From Patescibacteria group bacterium (GTDB taxonomy: Bacteria; Patescibacteriota; Minisyncoccia; Phycocordibacterales; WO2-35-19), in NCBI GenBank assembly GCA_038065655.1, contig JBBTQO010000009.1, positions 218 through 64,217 of the forward strand: DNA of 64,000 bases, in the 5' to 3' direction. The notes beneath the pieces were generated by a model. The model was not told the DNA's origin and did no database searches. It worked only from the letters and a program-made list of their open reading frames with translations. Below, piece after piece: positions 9,380 to 57,580 of the stretch. Position 1 is the first letter of the stretch; every line of letters starts with the position of its first letter. A program made the translations under genes and the position numbers.

Positions 9380-9421
9380 TGTCTTTTATTATGGAATTTT
9401 TTGTGGATATCGTGGAGGTGT

Positions 9422-9682
9422 TTATTTATAAACATCGTGATCCCCAACTGATAAAATAGCTGCGATTTTTTTAGAAACATACCGAAAAACGATACAAGTT
9501 TTGTAATTAACTGAAAAACTATATCTGCCAGTTAATTTACCATGCAATTTGTGCACTTTGAGTTGTTGATGATTTTTGCGATTTTTAAAAAGATTTATTT
9601 TATCCAAAACCTCTTCACCTAAAGCATATTCTAATTTTTTAAACTCTTTTATAAAATTGGGAGTATAAATTAACTCAATCAT
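9422..9682 (-). CDS. type II toxin, RelE/ParE family
   Basis: 86 aa. ...KLHGKLTGRYSFSVNYKTCIVFRYVSKKIAAILSVGDHDVYK fits the ParE/RelE C-terminal pattern. Immediately downstream of an RHH antitoxin gene. Confidence 0.75.
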   Translation of the reverse strand: MIELIYTPNFIKEFKKLEYALGEEVLDKINLFKNRKNHQQLKVHKLHGKLTGRYSFSVNYKTCIVFRYVSKKIAAILSVGDHDVYK

Positions 9683-9683
9683 T

Positions 9684-9944
9684 TTAATTCTTAAATTTTT
9701 TAAGGATTTTTCTTAGATCACCATAGAATATTTTGCCATCCAAAAGTTCTTGTTCGGCCCGAAGAACTGAGGCGACAGCTTCATCTTCCGCAAGTAAATC
9801 AATAGCTTTACGAACAACCTCAGCTTTGTTTGAGGCAAATTTTTGTTTGATCATGGAATTTATAAATTCTTCCTGGCTAGAGTTTATGGGTATTGATAGG
9901 GTGGTCATATTTGTATGATTATTTAATATGATAATATCATACAT
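9684..9944 (-). CDS. ParD/RHH-type antitoxin
   Basis: TTLSIPINSSQEEFINSMIKQKFASNKAEVVRKAIDLLAEDEAVASVL resembles ParD (ribbon-helix-helix). The true start may be the internal Met (MTTLSIP, at 9908). There is a 1-nt gap to the toxin gene. Confidence 0.7.
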   Translation of the reverse strand: MYDIIILNNHTNMTTLSIPINSSQEEFINSMIKQKFASNKAEVVRKAIDLLAEDEAVASVLRAEQELLDGKIFYGDLRKILKKFKN

Positions 9945-9967
9945 TAATCAATAAATTACGCAAGTGT

Positions 9968-10912
9968 TTAACCTCTTTTATTATGAAATTTTTTGTGGAT
10001 GTCGCGGAGGTGTTTGTCGGTGACATGGGTGTAGATTTGGGTGGTGCCTATGTTGGCGTGGCCGAGTAGAGCTTGCACAGAGCGCAGGTCGGCGCCATTT
10101 GAGAGTAAGTCGGTAGCAAAAAGATGGCGCATAGTGTGAGGCGTGACTTTTTTTGATATACCAGCTTTAATTGCATAATGTTTTACTATCCTCTCCACTG
10201 ATCTACGAGTAATGGCCAATCCTTTGCCGCGAGATTCTTGGGCCTTGCTGTTTTTTGATAGTTGAACAAAGAGTGCATCGTCCATATCTTTTCTCTTGGC
10301 TAAATATTCCTTCAAAACTTTTTTAGCATAGTCTGATATGAAAACCACTCGGAGCTTTCTGCCTTTGCCCATAATGGAAAGTTCGTCTGTAGTGAGGTCT
10401 ATATCGCGTGTTAGGGAACAAAGTTCAGAAACACGCAATCCGGTGGAAAAAAGTAATTCTAATATTGCCTTATCACGAAGTGCGTCAAGGCTATTATCTT
10501 TTGGGGCGTCTAACAATCTTTTTAATTCAGCGTTAGTGATGAGATCTAGAGATCTTTCAGGGGTTCTGGCCAGTTCAATCCTTTCCGAGGGCATAGACTT
10601 GATTTCTTGCCTAGCGAGATATTTTAGAAATGCCCTAATAGAGATTAAATAATAATTTTGGGTTTTTTTTGACATTGTTTCCCCTGTTTTTCTGTTGTTC
10701 CCTGTGACTTGGCGATTTAACCAAAGGCGGAATTCACGCACTACACTATCGGTAATGTCTTCAGGTTGTTTTGCTCCTGTTTGCTTTAAAAATACATCGA
10801 GATAATGCTGGTAATTCTCAACAGTTTTCAGAGCGCGACCCTTTTCAATCTCCACATATTCCAAAAATTGCCTTTTTAGTTGTTCTAGATCTTGTGCCAT
10901 ATATAACCCCAC
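9968..10912 (-). CDS. tyrosine recombinase XerC/XerD family
   Basis: 314 aa. C-terminal HTMRHLFATDLLSNGADLRSVQALLGHANIGTTQIYTHV carries the R..H..R..Y catalytic signature. Confidence 0.85.
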   Translation of the reverse strand: MGLYMAQDLEQLKRQFLEYVEIEKGRALKTVENYQHYLDVFLKQTGAKQPEDITDSVVREFRLWLNRQVTGNNRKTGETMSKKTQNYYLISIRAFLKYLARQEIKSMPSERIELARTPERSLDLITNAELKRLLDAPKDNSLDALRDKAILELLFSTGLRVSELCSLTRDIDLTTDELSIMGKGRKLRVVFISDYAKKVLKEYLAKRKDMDDALFVQLSKNSKAQESRGKGLAITRRSVERIVKHYAIKAGISKKVTPHTMRHLFATDLLSNGADLRSVQALLGHANIGTTQIYTHVTDKHLRDIHKKFHNKRG

Positions 10913-11902: not shown

Positions 11903-11937
11903 TTATTAAAAAAGACCGCTCATCGCTGAGCGGTCTT
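11903..11937 (-). terminator. intrinsic terminator of E4
   Basis: Perfect stem AAGACCGCTCA/TGAGCGGTCTT with loop TCGC, followed by a T-run on the minus strand. Confidence 0.6.
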
Positions 11938-12406: not shown

Positions 12407-12436
12407 ATTATACACCCAATCAATATAAAAGTCAAG
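12407..12436 (-). promoter_or_regulatory. sigma70-like promoter (TTGACT-17-TATAAT with TG extension) for cassette E4
   Basis: Read directly on the minus strand: TTGACTtttatattgattgggTGTATAAT. Confidence 0.5.
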
Positions 12437-12483
12437 TAAAACGAAGGAAAATGGCTAAAAATAAAGTTTTTTGTGAAATAACG

Positions 12484-12545
12484 CCCATCACCTTCGCAAG
12501 GTGAGGGGCAACTTGCCGTGGGGCAAGTGGGGTGGGGTCGGAAGG
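12484..12545 (-). repeat. Family-C double-hairpin element (reverse orientation) in the rpsO leader
   Basis: Its reverse complement reads ccttccgaccccacccca-cttgccccacggcaag-ttgcccctcaccttgcgaaggtgatggg. Compare 56930..56990. Confidence 0.55.
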
Positions 12546-15273: not shown

Positions 15274-15318
15274 ATAACTCATCCCTAACCCTTCTCTTAC
15301 AACAAGAGAAGGGTTTCC
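15274..15318 (-). repeat. Family-A element (reverse orientation)
   Basis: ataactcatccctaacccttctcttacaacaagagaagggtt. Confidence 0.6.
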
Positions 15319-17659: not shown

Positions 17660-17701
17660 TAACCTCACCCCCCAACCCCTCTCCTAGAAGCAGGAGAGGG
17701 G
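17660..17701 (+). repeat. Family-E element right after the pilC stop
   Basis: taacctcaccccccaa-cccctctcct-agaagc-aggagagggg. Confidence 0.5.
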
Positions 17702-21615: not shown

Positions 21616-21652
21616 CCCACCCCCCAACCCCTCCCTTAAATTAAGGGAGGGG
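21613..21652 (+). repeat. Family-E element starting with the stop codon
   Basis: TAAcccaccccccaa-cccctccctt-aaatt-aagggagggg. Confidence 0.5.
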
Positions 21653-21660
21653 GGTTCCGA

Positions 21661-22477: not shown

Positions 22478-22535
22478 TTTCCCTTCCCAGAAGATGACCT
22501 TTGAAGACCCTGCCTCAAAAGGTCATCTTCAAATT
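22478..22535 (+). terminator. Family-B post-stop hairpin with conserved loop (after tpiA)
   Basis: tttcccttcccaGAAGATGACCTTTgaagaccctgcctcaAAAGGTCATCTTCaaatt. Confidence 0.6.
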
Positions 22536-22583
22536 CCTACATTAGTCAAAAATTCGCGACCGCGAAAATCTGGCTAATTTAGA

Positions 22584-22621
22584 ATACACAGATTTCAGAC
22601 GGTCGTCGCTAATCTGTGTAT
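22584..22621 (+). promoter_or_regulatory. 38-nt palindromic operator-like site (ATACACAG-N-GACGGTCGTC-N-CTGTGTAT), copy 3
   Basis: atacacagatttcagacggtcgtcgctaatctgtgtat overlaps the higB start. Confidence 0.55.
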
Positions 22622-22879
22622 GTAATAAAAAACAAAATTATTTCTTTAGTTGATGTTTTGATGGAAAATAATGGCTCGCTTGGAAACCTTGATTCAAAAA
22701 GTTTAAGAAAAGGACTTTTTGAACTAAGATTAATTGGTTCTGTTAATACAAGAATATTTTATTGTTTTCATAAAGACACAATCTATTTATTACACGCAAT
22801 AATTAAGAAAACTCAAAGAACACCAATAAGAGAAATTGAATTTGCTAGAAAAATGAAAAAGATAGTTGGACAATTATAA
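22616..22879 (+). CDS. HigB-like toxin (Gp49/DUF891-like)
   Basis: ...LRKGLFELRLIGSVNTRIFYCFHKDTIYLLHAIIKKTQRTPIREIEFARK matches Gp49-like killer proteins. Overlaps the downstream XRE antitoxin gene. The track start is a GTG inside a palindrome, so the true start may instead be Met at 22661. Confidence 0.65.
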   Translation: MYVIKNKIISLVDVLMENNGSLGNLDSKSLRKGLFELRLIGSVNTRIFYCFHKDTIYLLHAIIKKTQRTPIREIEFARKMKKIVGQL

Positions 22880-26469: not shown

Positions 26470-26595
26470 GTGAAGACTACAAAAACTGGAAGTAAAGTAG
26501 GCAAAGAGATTTACAATCTCTGCCTGAAAGGAGGTTTCTCAATCCGCAAAGCGAAGATGTGGGCAAGAATCTTCAGGGAAGAATTTTCTTCCTAA
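26470..26595 (+). CDS. possible 41-aa basic small protein
   Basis: GGGAGG SD, then GTG. VKTTKTGSKVGKEIYNLCLKGGFSIRKAKMWARIFREEFSS. Followed by an intrinsic terminator at 26603..26655. Confidence 0.3.
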   Translation: MKTTKTGSKVGKEIYNLCLKGGFSIRKAKMWARIFREEFSS

Positions 26596-26602
26596 GTGAG
26601 AA

Positions 26603-26655
26603 TGCGCTCCGCAACTCGGGCTCATGTATGAGTTTGGTGCGGAGCGTTTTGTTTG
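26603..26655 (+). terminator. intrinsic terminator
   Basis: Stem GCGCTCCGCAAC...TGCGGAGCG followed by TTTTGTTTG. Confidence 0.55.
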
Positions 26656-26670
26656 TGATAAAATGGTTTC

Positions 26671-26844
26671 ATGAAAAAGGATTTAGCTATAGTACCAATG
26701 GAAATAATTGAAAGAAAAATATCTTTCGGCTCCAAAACCCAAAGAGGGGCGGAAACCACCTCCATACTGGCCTCAGTCATCATGAGCTTGAAGTGGAACC
26801 ACCCAAACGACTGGTTCCAAAAGTATTTAAAATTGAGCACTTAA
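26671..26844 (+). CDS. possible 57-aa small protein
   Basis: MKKDLAIVPMEIIERKISFGSKTQRGAETTSILASVIMSLKWNHPNDWFQKYLKLST. Below the ORF-track size cut-off. An extended -10-like TGTGATAAAAT box lies 6 nt upstream. Confidence 0.25.
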   Translation: MKKDLAIVPMEIIERKISFGSKTQRGAETTSILASVIMSLKWNHPNDWFQKYLKLST

Positions 26845-26918
26845 AATATCCTTGTTTTTAGGGGTGTTTTGAGGGGTGTGGATACTTACATTTCTTTGTT
26901 ATAACTAACCTCTTTTGC

Positions 26919-26947
26919 TTGACAATAAGTTTGGGTAAGAGTATAAA
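26919..26947 (+). promoter_or_regulatory. sigma70-like promoter TTGACA-N17-TATAAA (cassette E3)
   Basis: ttgcTTGACAataagtttgggtaagagTATAAA, read directly. Confidence 0.55.
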
Positions 26948-26973
26948 GTAAATTAGGAAAGGAGCCCGTGAAG

Positions 26974-27246
26974 ATGAACGCACCAACAGGAATGAGATCC
27001 TTGGATGATATCATGGGAGATATCAGACAACATGAAGTGATCCACTATGAGCCTGATGGTTTGGGCGGATTCAGATGCAAAAAGTGTGGCGCCAAAATTC
27101 AGCAAACCACCTGCACCGTTTCTGTCCACACTAACCAATTTAGCAATGTGTGTGCCGGAGGCGGTGAAGTCTTGCAACTGCCTCTGCCGTACTGCTCTTC
27201 TTGTGAAGGGATGCCGACACACACAAGTACTTGTGTTCACGTTTAG
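26974..27246 (+). CDS. hypothetical zinc-ribbon small protein (cassette E3)
   Basis: GGAAAGGAG SD 9 nt upstream of ATG. 90 aa with FRCKKCG...CAGGG...YCSSCEG Cys pairs. Noticeably G+C-richer than its flanks. Terminator at 27258..27292. Confidence 0.5.
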   Translation: MNAPTGMRSLDDIMGDIRQHEVIHYEPDGLGGFRCKKCGAKIQQTTCTVSVHTNQFSNVCAGGGEVLQLPLPYCSSCEGMPTHTSTCVHV

Positions 27247-27257
27247 CAAGCCTATTG

Positions 27258-27292
27258 GGGGGTGATTTCGGTCGCTCCCCTTTGTTTATGCT
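27258..27292 (+). terminator. intrinsic terminator of E3
   Basis: Stem GGGGGGTGA...TCGCTCCCC followed by TTTGTTTAT. Confidence 0.45.
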
Positions 27293-27303
27293 AAAATAGT
27301 TTT

Positions 27304-27924
27304 ATGAATATTTTTAATGATTCAAATAGTGCTCAAAAAAAGTTCCAAGGTAAAATTGCTGGTTCGAAAGGGGCTGGATATGCTGAAATTTTTTTGAATA
27401 AGGAAGTAGAGAAGTTTCTCAGGGAAAATATATCTGATAAAAATACAAAAATAATTATTTATACTGATGGTTCGTCGCGTGGTAATCCTGGGCCGGGTGG
27501 TTTTGGAGCGATTATTTTTAGTAGAGAAAAAGTTTTGGAAATTGGTGGTAGAGAAGAGCAAACAACAAATAATAGGATGGAAATGAAAGCGGCGATTGAA
27601 GCTCTGAAAATAATTCCAGAAAATTCTTTTGTTGAGTTGCATGCAGATTCTGAGTATTTAATAAAAGGTATTACGATTTGGATTAAAAATTGGCAGAAAA
27701 ATAATTGGCGCACTAAAGATAAGAGGGAAGTTTTAAACCGCGATTTGTGGGAAGAACTTTTAGCACAAACAGAAAATAAAAATATAGAATGGAAAAAAGT
27801 AGTGGGCCACTCAGGTCACGAGTTTAATGATCGTTGTGATGAGATTGCTACAAGTTTTGCCGATGGCTTGAATGTTGATTTTTATAATGGCTCAGAATCA
27901 GGGTATTTCTTGTTTCATCAATGA
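27304..27924 (+). CDS. rnhA: ribonuclease HI
   Basis: IIYTDGSSRGNPGPGGFGAII...TTNNRMEMKAAIEAL...HADSEYLIKGIT.WI.NWQKNNW...VGHSGHEFNDRCDEIA are the canonical RNase H motifs. Confidence 0.85.
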   Translation: MNIFNDSNSAQKKFQGKIAGSKGAGYAEIFLNKEVEKFLRENISDKNTKIIIYTDGSSRGNPGPGGFGAIIFSREKVLEIGGREEQTTNNRMEMKAAIEALKIIPENSFVELHADSEYLIKGITIWIKNWQKNNWRTKDKREVLNRDLWEELLAQTENKNIEWKKVVGHSGHEFNDRCDEIATSFADGLNVDFYNGSESGYFLFHQ

Positions 27925-31267: not shown

Positions 31268-31296
31268 TTGACAAATGTATATCTTTTTGCTATACT
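31268..31296 (+). promoter_or_regulatory. consensus sigma70 promoter TTGACA-N17-TATACT (cassette E1)
   Basis: tacTTGACAaatgtatatctttttgcTATACT. Confidence 0.6.
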
Positions 31297-31335
31297 TATA
31301 TCAGATGGGGTTCAAAGAGCCCCTAAGGAGACACA

Positions 31336-31428
31336 ATGAAGATCAGGAAGTTGAAGAAGAATCGACAGGTGCCACCGGCACCGAAACCGATTGCACTTAT
31401 GCTTGCGAACGCCTCCGGTCGAGACTGA
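31336..31428 (+). CDS. 30-aa peptide ORF inside GC-rich transcription unit E1
   Basis: AAGGAG SD 5 nt upstream. MKIRKLKKNRQVPPAPKPIALMLANASGRD. About 150 nt of GC-rich sequence follows before the terminator. Confidence 0.35.
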   Translation: MKIRKLKKNRQVPPAPKPIALMLANASGRD

Positions 31429-31572
31429 CGCCCTGGGCGCCGGCCGACACATTTCACTAGAAAGGAGGTATAGTCCAATGGATTGAACAATTGAGTTGCG
31501 CCAACCCGCGGTACAAGGCACCGTGGTTGCCACAAAGTCCAGTGGTGTATCAGAAACTATGGGCAAAAACTA

Positions 31573-31620
31573 GGGGTCCTGTCGTCATTGAAAACGCAGG
31601 CCCTTTTTGTTTATATTTTT
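31573..31620 (+). terminator. intrinsic terminator of E1
   Basis: AGGGGTCCTG...CAGGCCCT stem followed by TTTTTGTTTATATTTTT. Confidence 0.5.
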
Positions 31621-31661
31621 ACTCTTGTCAAAAATTTTAATATTTTATATAATTTGAATAT

Positions 31662-32273
31662 ATGGAAGGTGTTCAAGGAGAATCAATAGAAGAATCAGGG
31701 GGATATAAACTTTGGAGACAGTCTGATAGCTGTATTGCTCGCTTCTTTCTTAGTGGCGACAAGAATAATCCGCCCGAACTCGAAGATGAATTATTTGAAG
31801 AAATAGTACGTAAAGGTCCAGATGAGTATGCATTGTCAGTGAGAGCATGTTCTCTAGGAGAACTAAAAGAGAACCCACCAAATGATTTAGTTATAGATTG
31901 GAAATACGCAAAGGACTACAATCTATATTTTGATGAGAAAAATTGTAGATGGATTTATTGGATTGAGGGGAATATTACTAATCCAGATCATGACCTGATT
32001 CAACAGGGAATAGAAAAAAGGAGGCAAAAGGGAATAACTCACTCAGCGTTTAGGTTTTTTTTAAAAAATCCAAAAAAATATATTGATAATTTTACTACCA
32101 AAAATTCATACTGCCCTTTTACAAATAAAGAGATAGGATTTATTGAAAAAGCAAGAGAATACTCAAGACATGGAGAATACGAATCTGAAGATGGTGGAGT
32201 TAGGCATGATTATGAATCACTGAAATGTCCTTGTGGTTGTGGCAAAAGTGCAGAAGAAATTATAAATGAATAA
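31662..32273 (+). CDS. hypothetical protein
   Basis: 203 aa, no recognisable family. C-terminal CPFT...CPCGCGKS. TTGTCA-N17-TATAAT promoter whose -10 ends 8 nt before the ATG (leaderless-like). Confidence 0.45.
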   Translation: MEGVQGESIEESGGYKLWRQSDSCIARFFLSGDKNNPPELEDELFEEIVRKGPDEYALSVRACSLGELKENPPNDLVIDWKYAKDYNLYFDEKNCRWIYWIEGNITNPDHDLIQQGIEKRRQKGITHSAFRFFLKNPKKYIDNFTTKNSYCPFTNKEIGFIEKAREYSRHGEYESEDGGVRHDYESLKCPCGCGKSAEEIINE

Positions 32274-32289
32274 TATATAAAAATTTTTC

Positions 32290-32375
32290 TATACACTAAA
32301 TAATCTTTGCTTTTTTGAGGGTGGCGTAGGCGCCGTTTTTTTGGATGGTTTTGAGTTTAACCGTATTGTTTTTAC
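32290..32375 (-). pseudogene. fragment duplicating the 3' end of rpmB (L28)
   Basis: The minus frame encodes ...KNNTVKLKTIQKNGAYATLKKAKII*. Plus-strand 32308..32353 is identical to 32943..32988 (the rpmB 3' end). Confidence 0.6.
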
Positions 32376-32473
32376 GGCTGATGAGGCAAATTTATCATGT
32401 TTAAAATAGCTCTCCAAATAACCCTTATTTTAAGCCACGCTTTGGTTTTTATAAAAAGAAAATGAAATTTTGC

Positions 32474-32502
32474 TTGACAAGAAAAGCATAGTATGCTATA
32501 CT
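32474..32502 (+). promoter_or_regulatory. consensus sigma70 promoter TTGACA-N17-TATACT (cassette E2)
   Basis: tgcTTGACAagaaaagcatagtatgcTATACT. Confidence 0.6.
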
Positions 32503-32564
32503 TATGTAAGATAGTACTCCCAGGCTTATGTCGGGAGGTATAAAGCAAAAAAAAGGAGCCAGTC

Positions 32565-32846
32565 ATGTATAGAGTAAGATTTGAACTGAATTTCCATTCC
32601 GCTGACACAACGGAGTGGCAGGATTTCATCAAGGCCGGGGCTGGTCGGATACGGACTCGGTGCGTGGGGTGGAGTGTAGATTCTCCTCAAGATAAGTTTG
32701 AAATATGGGAGGCTAGGTCTTCCAGACCATTTGTGATCATCATTAACACTCGTGATCACGAGGGTTTCGTCAGGACTGAAAAGGTCCTCGTGGCCACCTC
32801 GGAAAGGTGGCAAGACACTCCAGTCGAACACTGGAGAAAGTTGTAA
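32565..32846 (+). CDS. hypothetical 93-aa protein (cassette E2)
   Basis: AAGGAG SD 7 nt upstream. MYRVRFELNFHSADTTEWQDFIKAGAGRIRTRCVGW.... G+C-richer than its flanks. Terminator at 32855..32900. Confidence 0.5.
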   Translation: MYRVRFELNFHSADTTEWQDFIKAGAGRIRTRCVGWSVDSPQDKFEIWEARSSRPFVIIINTRDHEGFVRTEKVLVATSERWQDTPVEHWRKL

Positions 32847-32854
32847 GAGTTTTA

Positions 32855-32900
32855 GGGCGTCGTGTGGGTTCAAATCCTACCGACGCTCTTTCTTTTTATT
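32855..32900 (+). terminator. intrinsic terminator of E2 with T-arm-like loop
   Basis: GGGCGTCG-tgtGGGTTCAAATCCtac-CGACGCTC followed by TTTCTTTTTATT. Confidence 0.55.
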
Positions 32901-32919: not shown

Positions 32920-33162
32920 TTATATAACTCCAGCTTTTTTGAGGGTGGCGTAGGCGCCGTTTTTTTGGATGGTTTTGATGGCTCGAGTAGAGAGAGTCAG
33001 AGTAAAAGATTTGTTGAGTTCGGGCACGAAAATTTTCTTTTTTTGTAAATTGGCAAATTTCCTTGTATTGCCACAAGGATTAAACTGGGTGGCGCGGGTT
33101 CGGTTTGAATAGGAACCGCCCATCTGAGATGATTTTTTTGTAATTGCACATTCTTTAGCCAT
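32920..33162 (-). CDS. rpmB: 50S ribosomal protein L28
   Basis: MAKECAITKKSSQMGGSYSNRTRATQFNPCGNTRKFANLQKKKIFVPELNKSFTLTLSTRAIKTIQK follows the L28 pattern. Confidence 0.8.
   Translation of the reverse strand: MAKECAITKKSSQMGGSYSNRTRATQFNPCGNTRKFANLQKKKIFVPELNKSFTLTLSTRAIKTIQKNGAYATLKKAGVI
32943..32988 (+). repeat. direct repeat partner of 32308..32353 (3' end of rpmB)
   Basis: 46 nt identical. Confidence 0.65.
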
Positions 33163-36571: not shown

Positions 36572-36629
36572 TTTTTTCTTTCAATATTTTGTTGCAGAAG
36601 CACCACTCGGTGTTTTTTGTTTTTTAGTA

Positions 36630-36667
36630 ATACACAGATTACTGACAACCGTCAGTGATGTGTGTAT
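36630..36667 (+). promoter_or_regulatory. 38-nt palindromic operator-like site, copy 1 (overlaps a TATAAT box and abuts the paaX-like start)
   Basis: atacacagattactgacaaccgtcagtgatgtgtgtat. -10 TATAAT at 36668..36673, ATG at 36681. Confidence 0.55.
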
Positions 36668-36680
36668 TATAATAAAAGCA

Positions 36681-37250
36681 ATGATAACGAGTTTAGAGAA
36701 AAAAATTAAAAAGGCAAATATACAAAAAGTTATTTTGGAAACGGTAAAATTAGCTGGAATTATTGGTGTTGGAATAATTGCTCCGAATGTATTGAGGGCA
36801 ATGAAAAAAATGGGGTTCATTACACACCCAAGGCAAATTGAATCAATAAAAAGATCTCGAGATGTTCTTATTGAAAGAGGTTTGCTTGAAAATAAAAACG
36901 GGCAACTAAAGATAACGCAAGGAGGAAAAAGGTATTTATTCAGGTGCTTATCTTTGGGAGACAATAAGGAATTAAACAAAAATAAAAAATGGGATGGCAA
37001 ATGGCGGGTTTTAATTTTTGACATTCCCGAAAGCAGGAGATTTGACAGAACAAATATTCGCCAAGCTCTTATTTCAATCGGATTTATGAGGTTGCAGGAT
37101 AGTGTTTGGATATATCCATATAGTTGTGAAAACATAGTATCTCTTTTAAAAGCTGAAACCGAAACGGAAGGAGATGTTTTGTATATGATTGTGGAAGCAT
37201 TGGAAAATGACGAAGAAGTAAAAAAATACTTCGGACTTAGTAAAAAATAG
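36681..37250 (+). CDS. PaaX-family transcriptional regulator-like protein
   Basis: C-terminal KWDGKWRVLIFDIPESRRFDRTNIRQALISIGFMRLQDSVWIYP matches the PaaX_C signature (WDG.W.lv.fdlPe..r..Rd.lr..L...GFg.l..gvWi.P). Inserted between rpsG and fusA. Confidence 0.65.
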   Translation: MITSLEKKIKKANIQKVILETVKLAGIIGVGIIAPNVLRAMKKMGFITHPRQIESIKRSRDVLIERGLLENKNGQLKITQGGKRYLFRCLSLGDNKELNKNKKWDGKWRVLIFDIPESRRFDRTNIRQALISIGFMRLQDSVWIYPYSCENIVSLLKAETETEGDVLYMIVEALENDEEVKKYFGLSKK

Positions 37251-37260
37251 ATTTTTTGGT

Positions 37261-37298
37261 ATACACAGGTTATTGACGGTCGTCGATGATGTGTGTAT
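37261..37298 (+). promoter_or_regulatory. 38-nt palindromic operator-like site, copy 2 (immediately after the paaX-like stop)
   Basis: atacacaggttattgacggtcgtcgatgatgtgtgtat. Confidence 0.5.
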
Positions 37299-37353
37299 AT
37301 GGTTTTAGATTTTATTTTAAATTAAAGCTGATGTAATAAAATTTATAAAAAAT

Positions 37354-39931: not shown

Positions 39932-39989
39932 TTCCCTTCCCAAAGGGTGACCCTTGAAGATCCTGCCCCAAAGGGTCATCCTCAAATTT
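39931..39989 (+). terminator. Family-B post-stop hairpin (after fusA), stem with compensatory changes
   Basis: attcccttcccaAAGGGTGACCCTTgaagatcctgccccaAAGGGTCATCCTCaaattt. Confidence 0.6.
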
Positions 39990-46313: not shown

Positions 46314-46786
46314 ATTTGTGGAGATGCCGATATTGAAACCGGATGCAAATAAGTTTTGATAATGCTTCTACGCGATGTAGTTAATTTTATTCTGTTTTGC
46401 AACAGAAATTTGATATTTGTTCTAAAAAATTAACAAAACAAACAAATATCTAGTTTCTTATTTCAAAAACAAGCCGAAACATTTCTTGTTTTTAAAGTCC
46501 GAAGTTATTACAATTCCTTTCTCTAACAGACTTCAAGAGGGAACCGTCGCTTAGGGGAACTTAAAATTAAGTTCTAACGTAAGCGAAAGCAAAATCGTTG
46601 ACTCCAAAATATGGAGAAACAACAGACTTAGCTTGTGCAAGAATGTTTTTAGCATTTATGCTTTGGAAACTTTTTAAGAGTTTTTCCAGCTCTATCGCGC
46701 GCATTGTCAAAGAATCTCATCTGTCTAAACCTGTCATCCCCCTAAAACATTTTATGAAATAAAATATTTTGGGCGAACTTTTGGTT

Positions 46787-47227
46787 TTAATTTTTTATCT
46801 CTCGCCTTATCTCTCGCTCAACATCACGCTTTTTAATAGTCTCGCGTTTGTCGTATTTTTTCTTACCACGGACAATAGCAATCTCTAATTTTAGCTTCCT
46901 ACCCTTATTATACACCGAAAGGGGTACGATCGTCAACCCCTTTTGATTTTCTGACTTAGTTAGGTCAGTTATTTCTTTTTTAGTCAAAAGTAGACGGCGG
47001 TTTCGTAAAGGATTGTAATCATTTGGGGTGTTGGCTGGCTGATAGGGAGGAATCTGCATATTTATCACAAAGGCTTCATTCCCTCGCAAAGTAATATGGG
47101 CGCCTTCCAAAGAGCCCTGACCCTTTTTTAATGATTTAACTTCAAAACCAAGTAATTCTATACCCGCCTCGGTTTTTTCGAGTATTTCATAATTAAAATG
47201 TGCTTTTTTGTTCTGTATTAAAGGCAT
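46787..47227 (-). CDS. smpB: SsrA-binding protein
   Basis: NKKAHFNYEILEKTEAGIELLGFEVKSLK...AHITLRGNEAFVINMQIPPY are SmpB signatures. Confidence 0.9.
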   Translation of the reverse strand: MPLIQNKKAHFNYEILEKTEAGIELLGFEVKSLKKGQGSLEGAHITLRGNEAFVINMQIPPYQPANTPNDYNPLRNRRLLLTKKEITDLTKSENQKGLTIVPLSVYNKGRKLKLEIAIVRGKKKYDKRETIKKRDVEREIRREIKN

Positions 47228-49377: not shown

Positions 49378-50058
49378 ATGAAACGACTACAAAAGGAAAA
49401 AGAAGAAGCAATAAGAATGAGATTAGGGGGGATGAGTTATTCTCAAATAAAATCAAAAATTAAAGTAAGCAAGAGCTCTCTTAGTGCTTGGCTTGCTAAA
49501 TATCCGTTGTCTGATGAGAGAATTAGAGAATTAAGGGATGTTAATCCTAGAAGAATAGAAAATTACAGAAAAACCATGGCACTCAAATGGCAAGCCAAAC
49601 TAAATGTTGCTCTTGAGAAAGCCAAAAAAGACATTAAACATCTTTCAAAAAGAGAATTATTTATTTTAGGTTTTGCACTATATTGGGCAGAAGGTGGGAA
49701 GACTCGAAAGAGCACATTACATTTTGGAAACACTGACCCCGACATGTTGAAAGTTTTTGTTAAATGGCTTATATTATTGGGAGTTCCTAAGGAGAGACTA
49801 AGGGTCAAACTTCATATGTATAAAGATATGGACAAGGAGAAAACTATTTCTTTTTGGGAAAAAACACTTGGAATTAAATCCGATCAATTTGGAAAACCGT
49901 ATGTCAAAAATTCTTATCTGACGGGGTTGACTTACAAACATGGTTTTGGACACGGTACATGTAATATTGTTTATCATAATACTGAATTGGCAAGCTATGT
50001 TTTGATGGGAATAAGGCATATTATAAATGATTTGATTGATTCAAAAATGCGCGCTTAG
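49378..50058 (+). CDS. HTH + LAGLIDADG-like domain protein
   Basis: 226 aa. N-terminal HTH (GGMSYSQIKSKIKVSKSSLSAWL). LGFALYWAEGGK resembles a LAGLIDADG catalytic motif followed by NTDPDMLKVFVKWLILLGV. Paralog of the partial gene at 1..611. Its last 10 nt overlap the tRNA-Ile(TAT) gene. Confidence 0.5.
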   Translation: MKRLQKEKEEAIRMRLGGMSYSQIKSKIKVSKSSLSAWLAKYPLSDERIRELRDVNPRRIENYRKTMALKWQAKLNVALEKAKKDIKHLSKRELFILGFALYWAEGGKTRKSTLHFGNTDPDMLKVFVKWLILLGVPKERLRVKLHMYKDMDKEKTISFWEKTLGIKSDQFGKPYVKNSYLTGLTYKHGFGHGTCNIVYHNTELASYVLMGIRHIINDLIDSKMRA

Positions 50059-50121
50059 CTCAGTTGGTAGAGCATTCCGCTTATACCGGAACGGTCGGGG
50101 GTTCGAGACCCTCAGCGCGCA
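50049..50121 (+). tRNA. tRNA with anticodon TAT (AUA-decoding tRNA-Ile-like)
   Basis: Acceptor GCGCGCT/AGCGCGC, D-arm GCTC-AGTTGGTA-GAGC, anticodon stem TTCCG/CGGAA with loop CTTATAC, T-loop TTCGAGA, discriminator A. Followed by a terminator at 50135..50160. Confidence 0.65.
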
Positions 50122-50134
50122 CAGCGTTAAGAAA

Positions 50135-56864: not shown

Positions 56865-56876
56865 TCTCATTCTTCA

Positions 56877-56929
56877 TTTCCCAGAAGATGACCTTTGAAT
56901 ATCCTGCCCCAAAAGGTCATCTTCAAATT
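56877..56929 (+). terminator. Family-B post-stop hairpin (after secY)
   Basis: tttcccaGAAGATGACCTTTgaatatcctgccccaAAAGGTCATCTTCaaatt. Confidence 0.6.
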
Positions 56930-57021: not shown

Positions 57022-57369
57022 TTAAACGAGTTGGATTTGTTTGCCGAGAGCTGTGGCTATTTTGTAGATAGTGCTATAAGAAAACCCGTGTCTCGTGTTT
57101 TCAACGCGAGCAATCATAGACTGGGTCATACTTGCTCTTTTGGCTAGGGTTTTTTGAGACATTTTTTTCTTGAGACGAGCTTCTCTTATTTGCTTTTTTA
57201 TTCTCATTTCTGCTAATTCTGTATTGTAAGCATCCCTGAAAGCTTTTGATTTCATACTTTTTTCAAAAACTTCATCAAATGTATAAAATTTGTGTCCTTT
57301 TATTATTAATTTGTAATATTTTTCTGCATAATCTATTTCTTGTAATGGTGTTTTGTTACTTTTCTTCAA
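57022..57369 (-). CDS. XRE-family HTH protein
   Basis: C-terminal MSQKTLAKRASMTQSMIARVENTRHGFSYSTIYKIATALG HTH. Inserted between secY and adk on the opposite strand. Confidence 0.6.
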   Translation of the reverse strand: MKKSNKTPLQEIDYAEKYYKLIIKGHKFYTFDEVFEKSMKSKAFRDAYNTELAEMRIKKQIREARLKKKMSQKTLAKRASMTQSMIARVENTRHGFSYSTIYKIATALGKQIQLV

Positions 57370-57580
57370 GAATACGTTTGCAAAATAAATTGTATTTTTA
57401 TAAATGAAAAATATAAAAAGGAGTTTATAAAATCATTAACTTTTGTTACAAAAGTTGTGCCCAGCGGGTAACTCATAAATCCAAGTATAGCAAAATTGCT
57501 ATATTGATGTCAAGCGGTTTACTTATTCTTACTTTTCCTTTATTCTATATTCATTATTCTTACTTCATAATTCATATCTC

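Follow-up and report, generated by a model that had tools for sequence, protein, structure and literature searches.

The window analysed here, a stretch of 64,000 nucleotides of contig JBBTQO010000009.1 (assembly GCA_038065655.1), contains four compact units under study, E1–E4, each with a small open reading frame (ORF), that are richer in G+C than their surroundings and lie in gaps between conserved core genes. E4 is on the minus strand and the other three are on the plus strand. The window has a G+C content of ~37% (mean 0.374, standard deviation 0.046 in 300-nt windows) and carries tRNAs, the transfer-messenger RNA (tmRNA) and housekeeping genes including PGK, RecJ, RNase H, ComEC, SOD, L28, S15, PilB and ribosomal protein operons, as well as competence-type genes (ComEC, PilB, PilC and pilins of the type IV pilus). 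Identical sequence was found on Hainich groundwater metagenome contigs. A search of species-representative genomes with the RecJ protein returned 40 loci, the closest of which (66–83% identity) belonged to Candidatus Zambryskibacteria (Candidate Phyla Radiation, CPR/Patescibacteria); on these matches the source organism, an ultra-small groundwater bacterium, is a member of this group. Related loci and contigs compared with the window are labelled L011, L013, L016, L051, L053 etc., and the closest relative locus is L011 (RecJ 83% identical). The gene order PGK-HIT-RecJ-RNaseH-ComEC-SOD-MBL-L28-M50-HK is kept across the related loci (40 RecJ loci).

Anatomy and composition of E1–E4

The four units have a common build. 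A sigma70-type promoter with a 17-nt spacer comes first, then AAGGAG at 5–9 nt from the start codon ATG, then a small ORF, and at the 3' end a G+C-rich hairpin with a T-run. These elements had been named in the original prediction, and on reading the sequence all of them were present in all four units. The near-consensus character of the promoters also held, each scoring at least 11/12, with the -35 box of E4 one base away from where it had been placed. In the window, nine promoters reached ≥11/12, versus 2.25 ± 1.67 in dinucleotide shuffles. Four of these precede E1–E4, one precedes the tmRNA gene and served as a positive control of the scan, and one precedes a neighbouring ORF of 203 codons (ORF203).

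46316-46741, minus strand: tmRNA gene, with a near-consensus promoter (TTGACG-N18-TATAAT) at ~46908-46936, minus strand

On these consensus matches, E1–E4 are predicted to be independent transcription units, each with its own promoter and intrinsic terminator. A 5' hairpin, which probably stabilises the mRNA, is present in E1, E3 and E4.

In composition, E1–E4 correspond to the four highest G+C peaks of the window (0.49–0.53 in 300-nt windows), and the G+C content per unit is 0.45–0.48 vs 0.374 for the window. G+C at third codon positions (GC3) is 0.41–0.55 in their ORFs, compared with 0.31 ± 0.03 (maximum 0.356) in 30 core genes, and in codon adaptation to these core genes all four ORFs fall below the core-gene minimum. 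The earlier description of the units as compositionally foreign was thus borne out by this local check of G+C and codon usage.

It had also been proposed that the four units form a family. No significant similarity was detected by BLASTP or profile comparison among E2, E3, E4 and the cargo of the corresponding gaps in relatives, and this part of the prediction did not survive; the exception is a promoter module, TTGACA-N14-TGCTATACTTAT, which E1 and E3 share with the MBL|L28 gap of L011 and L013 and which is absent from the rest of the window and from the other, unrelated loci. Judged by these comparisons, E1–E4 are not one sequence family, and beyond the promoter module their shared signals appear generic. 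A further motif, CTTTATTTTWAGCCA, was observed 14–37 nt upstream of the -35 boxes of E4, E3 and the L013 gap promoter; at ≤3 mismatches it has 4 matches in the window vs 0.43 expected. As a common boundary motif it was set aside, being enriched but not interpretable.

12446-12466, minus strand; 32423-32443, plus strand; 16507-16520 of L013: sites of the CTTTATTTTWAGCCA motif

Products and boundaries of the individual units

E2 is located in the RecJ|RNase H gap.

26919..26947, plus strand: E2 promoter (TTGACA 26919-26924, 17-nt spacer, TATAAA 26942-26947)
26959-26964, plus strand: E2 ribosome-binding site AAGGAG, 9 nt before ATG 26974
26974-27246, plus strand: E2 ORF, 90 aa, uncharacterised small-protein family
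27257..27290, plus strand: E2 intrinsic terminator (hairpin 27257-27280, 10-bp stem, T-run)

The view of E2 as an orphan, based on a word-index search that gave the query alone, was overturned by an exhaustive HMMER search, which found homologues in 208 clusters at E≤1e-3 and 38 at E≤1e-10 (clusters were defined at 50% identity, and 208 is a lower bound). Nearly all of the homologues are 80–130 aa long and they are 35–51% identical. Judged from these relatives, E2 is a real protein of a widespread uncharacterised family. Residues C35, C38, C74, C77, H52, C87 and H89 are conserved among 44 aligned homologues, whose alignment gives the motif CKxCG...TCxVSIH...CAGxGEV...PLPYCPxCEGxP...TCVHV, and E2 carries two CxxC pairs (C35xxC38 and C74xxC77). 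The AlphaFold (AF2) model, which contains beta-strands, had a pLDDT of 89.9 and a pTM of 0.77 with the family alignment (pLDDT 48.9 from the single sequence). Its fold had no match in PDB or BFVD, and the sequence had no Pfam, NCBIfam, PHROG or PADLOC match and no relative in PDB; Pfam zinc-ribbon models all scored under the cut-off. Two metal sites are likely, one of the zinc-ribbon type (C35/C38/C74/C77) and a second formed by H52, C87 and H89. E2 is probably a metal-binding small protein, and as a working guess it might possibly bind nucleic acids. It resembles small zinc-ribbon proteins, e.g. the CPxCG-type zinc-finger micro-proteins of archaea (PDB 8q5b), in its two CxxC knuckles (CKKCG ... 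CSSCEG in E2) and its length of ~90 aa.

The E2 homologues examined are single genes, each with a strong ribosome-binding site of its own, and are spread over five unrelated contexts. No neighbour was common to them, and a functional assignment from gene neighbourhood was abandoned. E2-family genes have a G+C content of 0.44–0.49 and reside on contigs or genomes of 0.46–0.53, where the gene does not stand out; this fits transfer from G+C-richer bacteria. The earlier suggestion of a high-GC host or partner organism as the donor finds no support in these values, which fit other G+C-richer bacteria.

E1 lies in the MBL|L28 gap and is followed there by ORF203, a similarly built fifth unit that the original prediction had not listed.

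31268..31296, plus strand: E1 promoter (TTGACA-N14-TGC-TATACT, extended -10; -10 at 31291-31296, 17-nt spacer overall)
31307..31323, plus strand: E1 5' hairpin near the predicted transcript start, identical in L011
31326-31331, plus strand: E1 ribosome-binding site AAGGAG
31337-31429, plus strand: E1 ORF, 30 aa (MKIRKLKKNRQVPPAPKPIALMLANASGRD), kept in L011
31430..31572, plus strand: E1 3' untranslated region (UTR), G+C-rich, poorly conserved
31573..31608, plus strand: E1 terminator (hairpin 31573-31603 and T-run)
31625..32273, plus strand: ORF203 unit (promoter TTGTCA-N17-TATAAT; ORF 31662-32273, 203 aa, C-terminal CPCGCGK)

The E1 unit is found at the same position in L011. Between the two, the ORF differs by six synonymous third-position changes, one in-frame 3-nt indel and a cluster of mostly conservative replacements, whereas the 3' UTR has diverged and contains a 42-nt indel. 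By these observations the peptide, which is basic and proline-rich, is the conserved element of E1. It had been proposed that the ORF is followed by about 150 nt of structured, G+C-rich RNA; the region is indeed G+C-rich (0.53), but it folds no better than shuffles (z = -0.75 for the ORF and 3' UTR without the terminator). Known RNAs considered as candidates for E1 (RNase P, SRP and 6S RNA) were rejected, as there was no match and z was -1.2 for the whole transcript. A metagenome pattern scan for further E1 alleles gave the L011 allele only. In two of the three contigs, a different sequence abuts the transcript start; in L053, an IS30-family transposase gene is directly upstream, and this insertion runs right up to the first base of the E1 5' hairpin, taking the place of the E1 promoter. 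ORF203 has an ordinary composition (GC3 0.23), is absent from L011 and had no family match.

E3 is the last unit of the same gap.

32296..32354, minus strand: left remnant of the L28 (rpmB) 3' end, encoding ...ATLKKAKII*, L011/L053 type
32309-32354, minus strand: left 46-nt direct repeat, inner part of the L28 remnant
32356..32409, plus strand: likely foreign remnant of an MBL-hydrolase 3' end (NRIVFTADEANLSCLK*)
32417..32506, plus strand: E3 promoter module (TTGACA 32474-N14-TGC-TATACT 32497-32502, 17-nt spacer overall)
32517..32537, plus strand: E3 5' UTR hairpin, kept by compensatory change in the L051 homologue
32565-32846, plus strand: E3 ORF, 93 aa, AAGGAG upstream, 71%-identical homologue
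32856..32898, plus strand: E3 terminator (hairpin 32856-32888 and T-run), pairing kept by compensatory changes in L051
32933-32978, minus strand: right 46-nt direct repeat, 3' end of the functional L28 gene (...KKAGVI*)

The homologue of E3 (P0003, on L051) is 71% identical and of the same length, with a dN/dS of 0.27 and no indels; it is on a short contig from another sample, in an unrelated context. By this comparison, E3 is a rare 93-aa protein under purifying selection. In L051, the homologous unit is flanked by two copies of a terminator hairpin (501-542 and 1027-1069; ~42 nt, 84% identical, 527 nt apart). The E3 terminator hairpin itself resembles a tRNA acceptor/T-arm minihelix with a UUCAAAU T-loop. 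At relaxed Rfam thresholds it gave a weak, tRNA-like acceptor/T-arm match (mascRNA model) of 18.5 bits vs a threshold of 42.5. A role of this tRNA-like 3' end as a processing or integration signal was rejected, because the T-loop motif is not kept in the homologue, though the stem is.

The boundaries of E3 retain a recombination footprint. The unit is bracketed by a perfect 46-nt direct repeat (32309-32354 and 32933-32978) that represents the 3' end of rpmB. The left L28 copy runs to the stop and has the C-terminus of the L011/L053 lineage, which also has E1; the functional right copy ends in ...KKAGVI* and is closer to the L13, L015 and L018 relatives. Directly after the left copy, NRIVFTADEANLSCLK can be aligned to the MBL hydrolase C-terminus, which reads GRIVFKSDGVNLEVK in relatives, and a 90-nt stretch spanning the E3 promoter shares ~75% identity with what lies immediately 3' of the MBL stop in L013, which has different cargo. 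The L28 remnant, the MBL remnant and the L013-like downstream sequence together suggest that the E3 unit is the entire MBL|L28 gap of another lineage, which became joined to the resident gap. One end of the unit would then lie within the homologous L28 gene and the other at an illegitimate junction at 32354/32355. Such a footprint would be the expected product of uptake of foreign DNA followed by homology-facilitated illegitimate recombination. The possibility of a mini integrative element targeting the L28 3' end was dropped after the MBL remnant and the two L28 allele types had been found.

E4 is located in the XerC|S15 gap.

12435..12407, minus strand: E4 promoter (TTGACT 12435-12430, 17-nt spacer, TATAAT 12412-12407)
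12331-12326, minus strand: E4 ribosome-binding site AAGGAG, 7 nt before ATG
12318-11998, minus strand: E4 ORF, 106 aa, one CxxC
11935..11908, minus strand: E4 terminator (hairpin 11935-11914, perfect 9-bp stem and T6)

No E4 homologue was found in a word-index search. An ORF as long as that of E4 on the promoter strand arose in 22 of 2000 shuffles (~1%). Population single-nucleotide polymorphisms were examined for signs of coding, and there was no variation inside the cassette. A low-coverage population contig (L069) is identical through the whole E4 cassette and has 8 mismatches in 78 nt (12447-12524) just outside the -35 box, which may be either a recombination boundary or assembly noise.

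Some details of the original prediction can be revised here. The ORF lengths of 90 and 93 aa were correct and that of E4 is 106 rather than 107 aa; CxxC-type pairs are present in E2 (two) and E4 (one), but E3 has a single Cys. The statement that the proteins match nothing applies, in the word-index search, to E4, and not to E2 with its 208 clusters or E3 with its one homologue.

Variable gaps between core genes

Each of the three gaps was longer in the window than in most relatives or in the relative available. The RecJ|RNase H gap is ≤110 nt in 23/34 loci and contains inserts of >500 nt in 11/34; here it is 867 nt and holds E2 and decayed remnants. The MBL|L28 gap is ≤209 nt in 14/23 loci and >400 nt in 8/23, compared with 1717 nt here (E1, ORF203 and E3). 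Between XerC and S15 there are ~190 nt in L016 and ~1.7 kb here, occupied by a helix-turn-helix (HTH) gene, a P-loop kinase-like gene and E4. The inserts in relatives' gaps consist of different ORFs that are mostly mutually unrelated; several have a TTGACA-type promoter and/or a ribosome-binding site, and they are usually G+C-richer than the genome. For example, the MBL|L28 gap of L013 (17080-17733) contains a 217-aa ORF with a G+C content of 0.64 and a GC3 of 0.82 in a genome of 39% G+C, ~480 nt downstream of the E3-like promoter. Other gap ORFs include those of L024 (244 aa, GC3 0.64) and L018 (199 aa, GC3 0.52). None of these three ORFs had a Pfam match. IS30-family transposases were found in the same two gaps of relatives (L053 8-958 and L016 11766-12782).

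Beside E2, the gap contains a decayed ORF and two copies of the native RecJ|RNase H junction motif, which flank the inserted E2 material.

26559..26844, plus strand: decayed chimeric ORF with an ORF6N-type N-terminus (MKKDLAIVPMEIIERKI) fused to another tail
26651..26673, plus strand: first copy of the RecJ|RNase H junction motif (TGTGATAAAATGGTTTCATG)
27283..27306, plus strand: second junction-motif copy, immediately 5' of the RNase H start codon

The N-terminus MKKDLAIVPMEIIERKI matches an ORF6N-type gene that fills the RecJ|RNase H gap of L016 and L023, and by eye the tail of the dead ORF resembles the C-terminus of an IS66-family transposase.

The same core-gene pairs bracket variable cargo across genomes, and the gaps are therefore small accessory-gene hotspots in the sense of PMC5635113. 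Comparison of gene order with relatives was in line with what had been anticipated for E1–E4: the cassettes vary in presence and the same gaps hold other cargo, with E1 shared with L011.

Several other features of the window were recorded. A toxin-antitoxin-like pair on the minus strand (9422-9682, weakly HigB/YafQ-like, and 9684-9944, weakly ParD-like) lies within 9382-10015, between two 42-nt direct repeats that are 93% identical and correspond to a duplicated 3' end of the XerC-type recombinase gene; a homologous pair occurs elsewhere in L015. A unit at 57022-57513 on the minus strand, with a consensus promoter (TTGACA-N18-TATACT) and a 115-aa HTH_3 gene, is in reverse orientation between secY and adk, and within this ribosomal-protein gene cluster it may be another inserted unit. 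The 3' ends of two ORFs on the minus strand lie in the copies of an 82-nt direct repeat (1132-1213 and 2229-2310, 89% identical); of these ORFs, at least that at 2219-2515 is small and Cys-rich.

Three families of palindromes or hairpins were also seen. A 57-nt palindromic element is present in 3 copies (86–91% identical; 22479-22535, 39932-39988 and 56873-56929) directly 3' of the tpiA, fusA and secY stops and resembles a dispersed REP-like or terminator repeat family. A 53-nt palindrome (AATACACAGATT...AATCTGTGTAT) has 3 copies (22583-22635, 36629-36681 and 37260-37312), one upstream of a HigB/HigA-like pair and two flanking a PaaX-like gene. C-rich hairpins (CCCCTCTCC...GGAGAGGGG; 15278-15313, 17666-17701 and 21618-21653) follow pilus and competence genes, and a similar hairpin ends contig L051. 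Finally, ARAGORN called a tRNA-Ile with anticodon TAT at 50049-50122. Such a tRNA is uncommon among bacteria, in which AUA is mostly read by a lysidine-modified CAU tRNA.

Origin of the units and related systems

We consider it probable that E1–E4 are independent, monocistronic, self-expressing small-protein genes that represent accessory cargo in a few hypervariable core-gene gaps and were most likely acquired from G+C-richer bacteria. The original prediction had included horizontally acquired, self-expressing genes of variable presence among its candidate explanations, and their deviant composition, the short gaps in most relatives and the foreign remnants that flank one unit agree with it. 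The donors would most likely be other, G+C-richer bacteria, and the probable route would be uptake of DNA and its recombination, homologous or homology-facilitated illegitimate, with the conserved flanking genes as anchors.

It should be noted, however, that several observations weigh against this interpretation. The promoters and terminators are predicted from consensus matches, and transcription is deduced from them. The coding status of E4 is based on ORF length and a ribosome-binding site, without a homologue, and its RNA is strongly folded in both orientations (z ~-4.2 for the ORF region and ~-4.1 for the antisense), beyond 40 control segments. E1 is common to L011 yet still G+C-rich; its composition is thus not explained by recent transfer alone, and E1 is an older unit. 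The closest relatives of E2 are only 45–51% identical, and no donor lineage was identified. The MBL remnant at E3 matches in 7/14 residues, which is suggestive and not proof, and the XerC|S15 comparison is based on one relative. In addition, the insertion-sequence (IS) and ORF6N remnants beside E2 and the IS30 copies in relatives' gaps indicate that mobile elements also visit the gaps, so the route of entry may differ between cassettes.

Some of these points would be expected if the units were old, vertically inherited, lineage-specific genes, repeatedly lost in relatives, whose G+C reflects amino-acid content (Cys, Gly, Pro, Ala, Arg) or mRNA structure. The retention of a G+C-rich E1 at the same position in L011, the ~0.44–0.49 G+C of E2-family genes whatever the host genome, the failure to find a close donor, and E3 and E4 mRNAs that are more structured than shuffles are all compatible with this. 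We regard it as unlikely: the gaps are minimal in most of the 34 and 23 loci and the inserts elsewhere are unrelated, the E3 homologue is in an unrelated context and those of E2 are in five, and GC3 is raised, not only G+C at first and second codon positions. It also would not account for the flanks of E3, an L28 remnant of resident type on one side and a foreign-type L28 end on the other, together with a foreign MBL remnant. The units might instead be cargo or debris of mobile elements, such as a prophage, an IS, or an integrative element that relies on the XerC-type recombinase nearby. Here the ORF6N-type and (by eye) IS66-like remnants beside E2, the IS30 copies that L016 and L053 carry in the same gaps, the tyrosine recombinase that adjoins the E4 gap, the 42-nt duplication of its 3' end around the toxin-antitoxin-like pair, and the two hairpin copies around the L051 homologue of E3 could be cited. 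However, no viral relatives of the cassettes were found in three scans of 2.9 million viral contigs, in PHROGs or in a BFVD fold search, the units contain no integrase, transposase or terminal repeats, and the duplications around E3 are ends of flanking core genes, as expected of recombination between two genomes. An origin of this kind is quite unlikely in our view.

Two further candidates had been listed in the original prediction, and neither fared well. Highly expressed, structured non-coding RNAs with incidental ORFs could explain why the units stand out as G+C peaks from an AT-rich genome, a typical property of RNA genes, and why strong promoters and terminators are predicted. Whole-transcript folding z-scores were -1.2 (E1), -1.8 (E2), -3.6 (E3) and -5.2 (E4), and those of the ORFs alone were -2.0 (E2), -3.0 (E3) and -4.2 (E4), compared with a mean of -0.26, a standard deviation of 1.05 and a minimum of -2.86 in 40 core-gene control segments. 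The E3 and especially the E4 mRNAs are unusually structured; the evidence that E1, E2 and E3 are coding carries more weight. E1 and E2 fold no better than shuffles, the E1 3' UTR is poorly conserved, substitution patterns in E1, E2 and E3 are of the coding type, and AAGGAG precedes the ATG in all four units. A scan of the whole window with Rfam 15 covariance models at gathering thresholds gave nothing at any of the four loci, and at relaxed thresholds, applied to the E1 and E3 regions, the sole match was the tRNA-like one at the E3 terminator. On their substitution patterns, E1–E3 are protein-coding and not structured RNA genes, and the RNA explanation, which remains for E4 only, is highly improbable. 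That the units are toxin, antitoxin, anti-defence or defence genes appears very unlikely. Small size, strain specificity, strong expression signals and a location in variable regions are common for such functions, and toxin-antitoxin-like pairs do occur in other variable gaps of the same genome; nevertheless, no PADLOC, Pfam or NCBIfam profile matched, each unit is a single gene without a partner, and the E2 homologues have no conserved neighbour.

If E1–E4 are small accessory genes acquired by recombination, as we prefer to think, they represent genome plasticity of a known kind and not a new kind of system, and current concepts of horizontal transfer are unchanged. Streamlined CPR genomes keep a near-frozen gene order, and the locus would indicate where and how new genes enter them: in tiny core-gene gaps, as ready-to-express single genes. 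E3 provides an unusually clean footprint of recombination between two lineages, with remnants of both flanking genes and two allelic types. Three products are testable, namely the E2 family with its confident predicted fold, the rare 93-aa E3 protein and the conserved 30-aa E1 peptide. Should their expression be as strong as the signals imply, they are candidates for strain-specific roles in an episymbiotic lifestyle. A broader view, which we find possible though doubtful, is that CPR genomes keep a few dedicated core-gene "slots", in which promoter-bearing mini-genes are swapped between lineages by DNA uptake and anchor-gene recombination, the cargo being abundant small effectors for host or phage interaction. 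If true, such slots would be a chromosomal counterpart of phage morons or integron cassettes that works without a recombinase, with promoter modules that can be re-used and with hairpin ends, and the E2 family and the basic, proline-rich E1 peptide would be examples of their cargo.

The proposed history of E3 resembles homology-facilitated illegitimate recombination in natural transformation, reportedly described by de Vries and Wackernagel in 2002. Likewise, E3 appears to have one homologous anchor (L28) and a non-homologous other end (32354/32355). The anchor end is duplicated over 46 nt, however, which departs from the textbook outcome, no microhomology was established at the junction, and the likeness is one deduced from sequence. 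Integron cassettes usually lack promoters and depend on IntI, attI and Pc. Like the units described here, they are small single-gene units ending in a hairpin and located side by side at a fixed site, and the L051 unit is placed between similar hairpins. In contrast, each of E1–E4 has its own promoter, the duplicated ends are parts of neighbouring core genes, and no IntI-type gene adjoins the MBL|L28 or RecJ|RNase H gaps.

In anatomy, the units are similar to phage morons (HK97 gp15-type; Juhala, Hendrix and colleagues), single extra genes with their own promoter and factor-independent terminator and a deviant G+C content (PMC3594210). Morons are missing at the corresponding site of otherwise collinear relatives and are expressed independently of the genes around them. 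E1–E4, known from sequence alone, share these signals and are likewise extra DNA relative to collinear relatives. Morons, however, lie in phage genomes, whereas E1–E4 are in the core chromosome (RecJ, RNase H and ribosomal protein genes), with no viral relatives found. The units are also consistent with the frequent horizontal transfer reported among Patescibacteria (PMC12455944). Finally, horizontal-transfer hotspots between core genes, diversified by homologous recombination, were described by Oliveira et al. 2017 (PMC5635113). As in those hotspots, the same core-gene pair surrounds unrelated cargo here and recombination footprints occur in flanking genes, and competence-type genes are present. 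The differences are the tiny scale, with one small gene per event and gaps of 0.4–1.7 kb in a streamlined genome, and a cargo that brings complete expression signals, with one promoter module re-used with different cargo.

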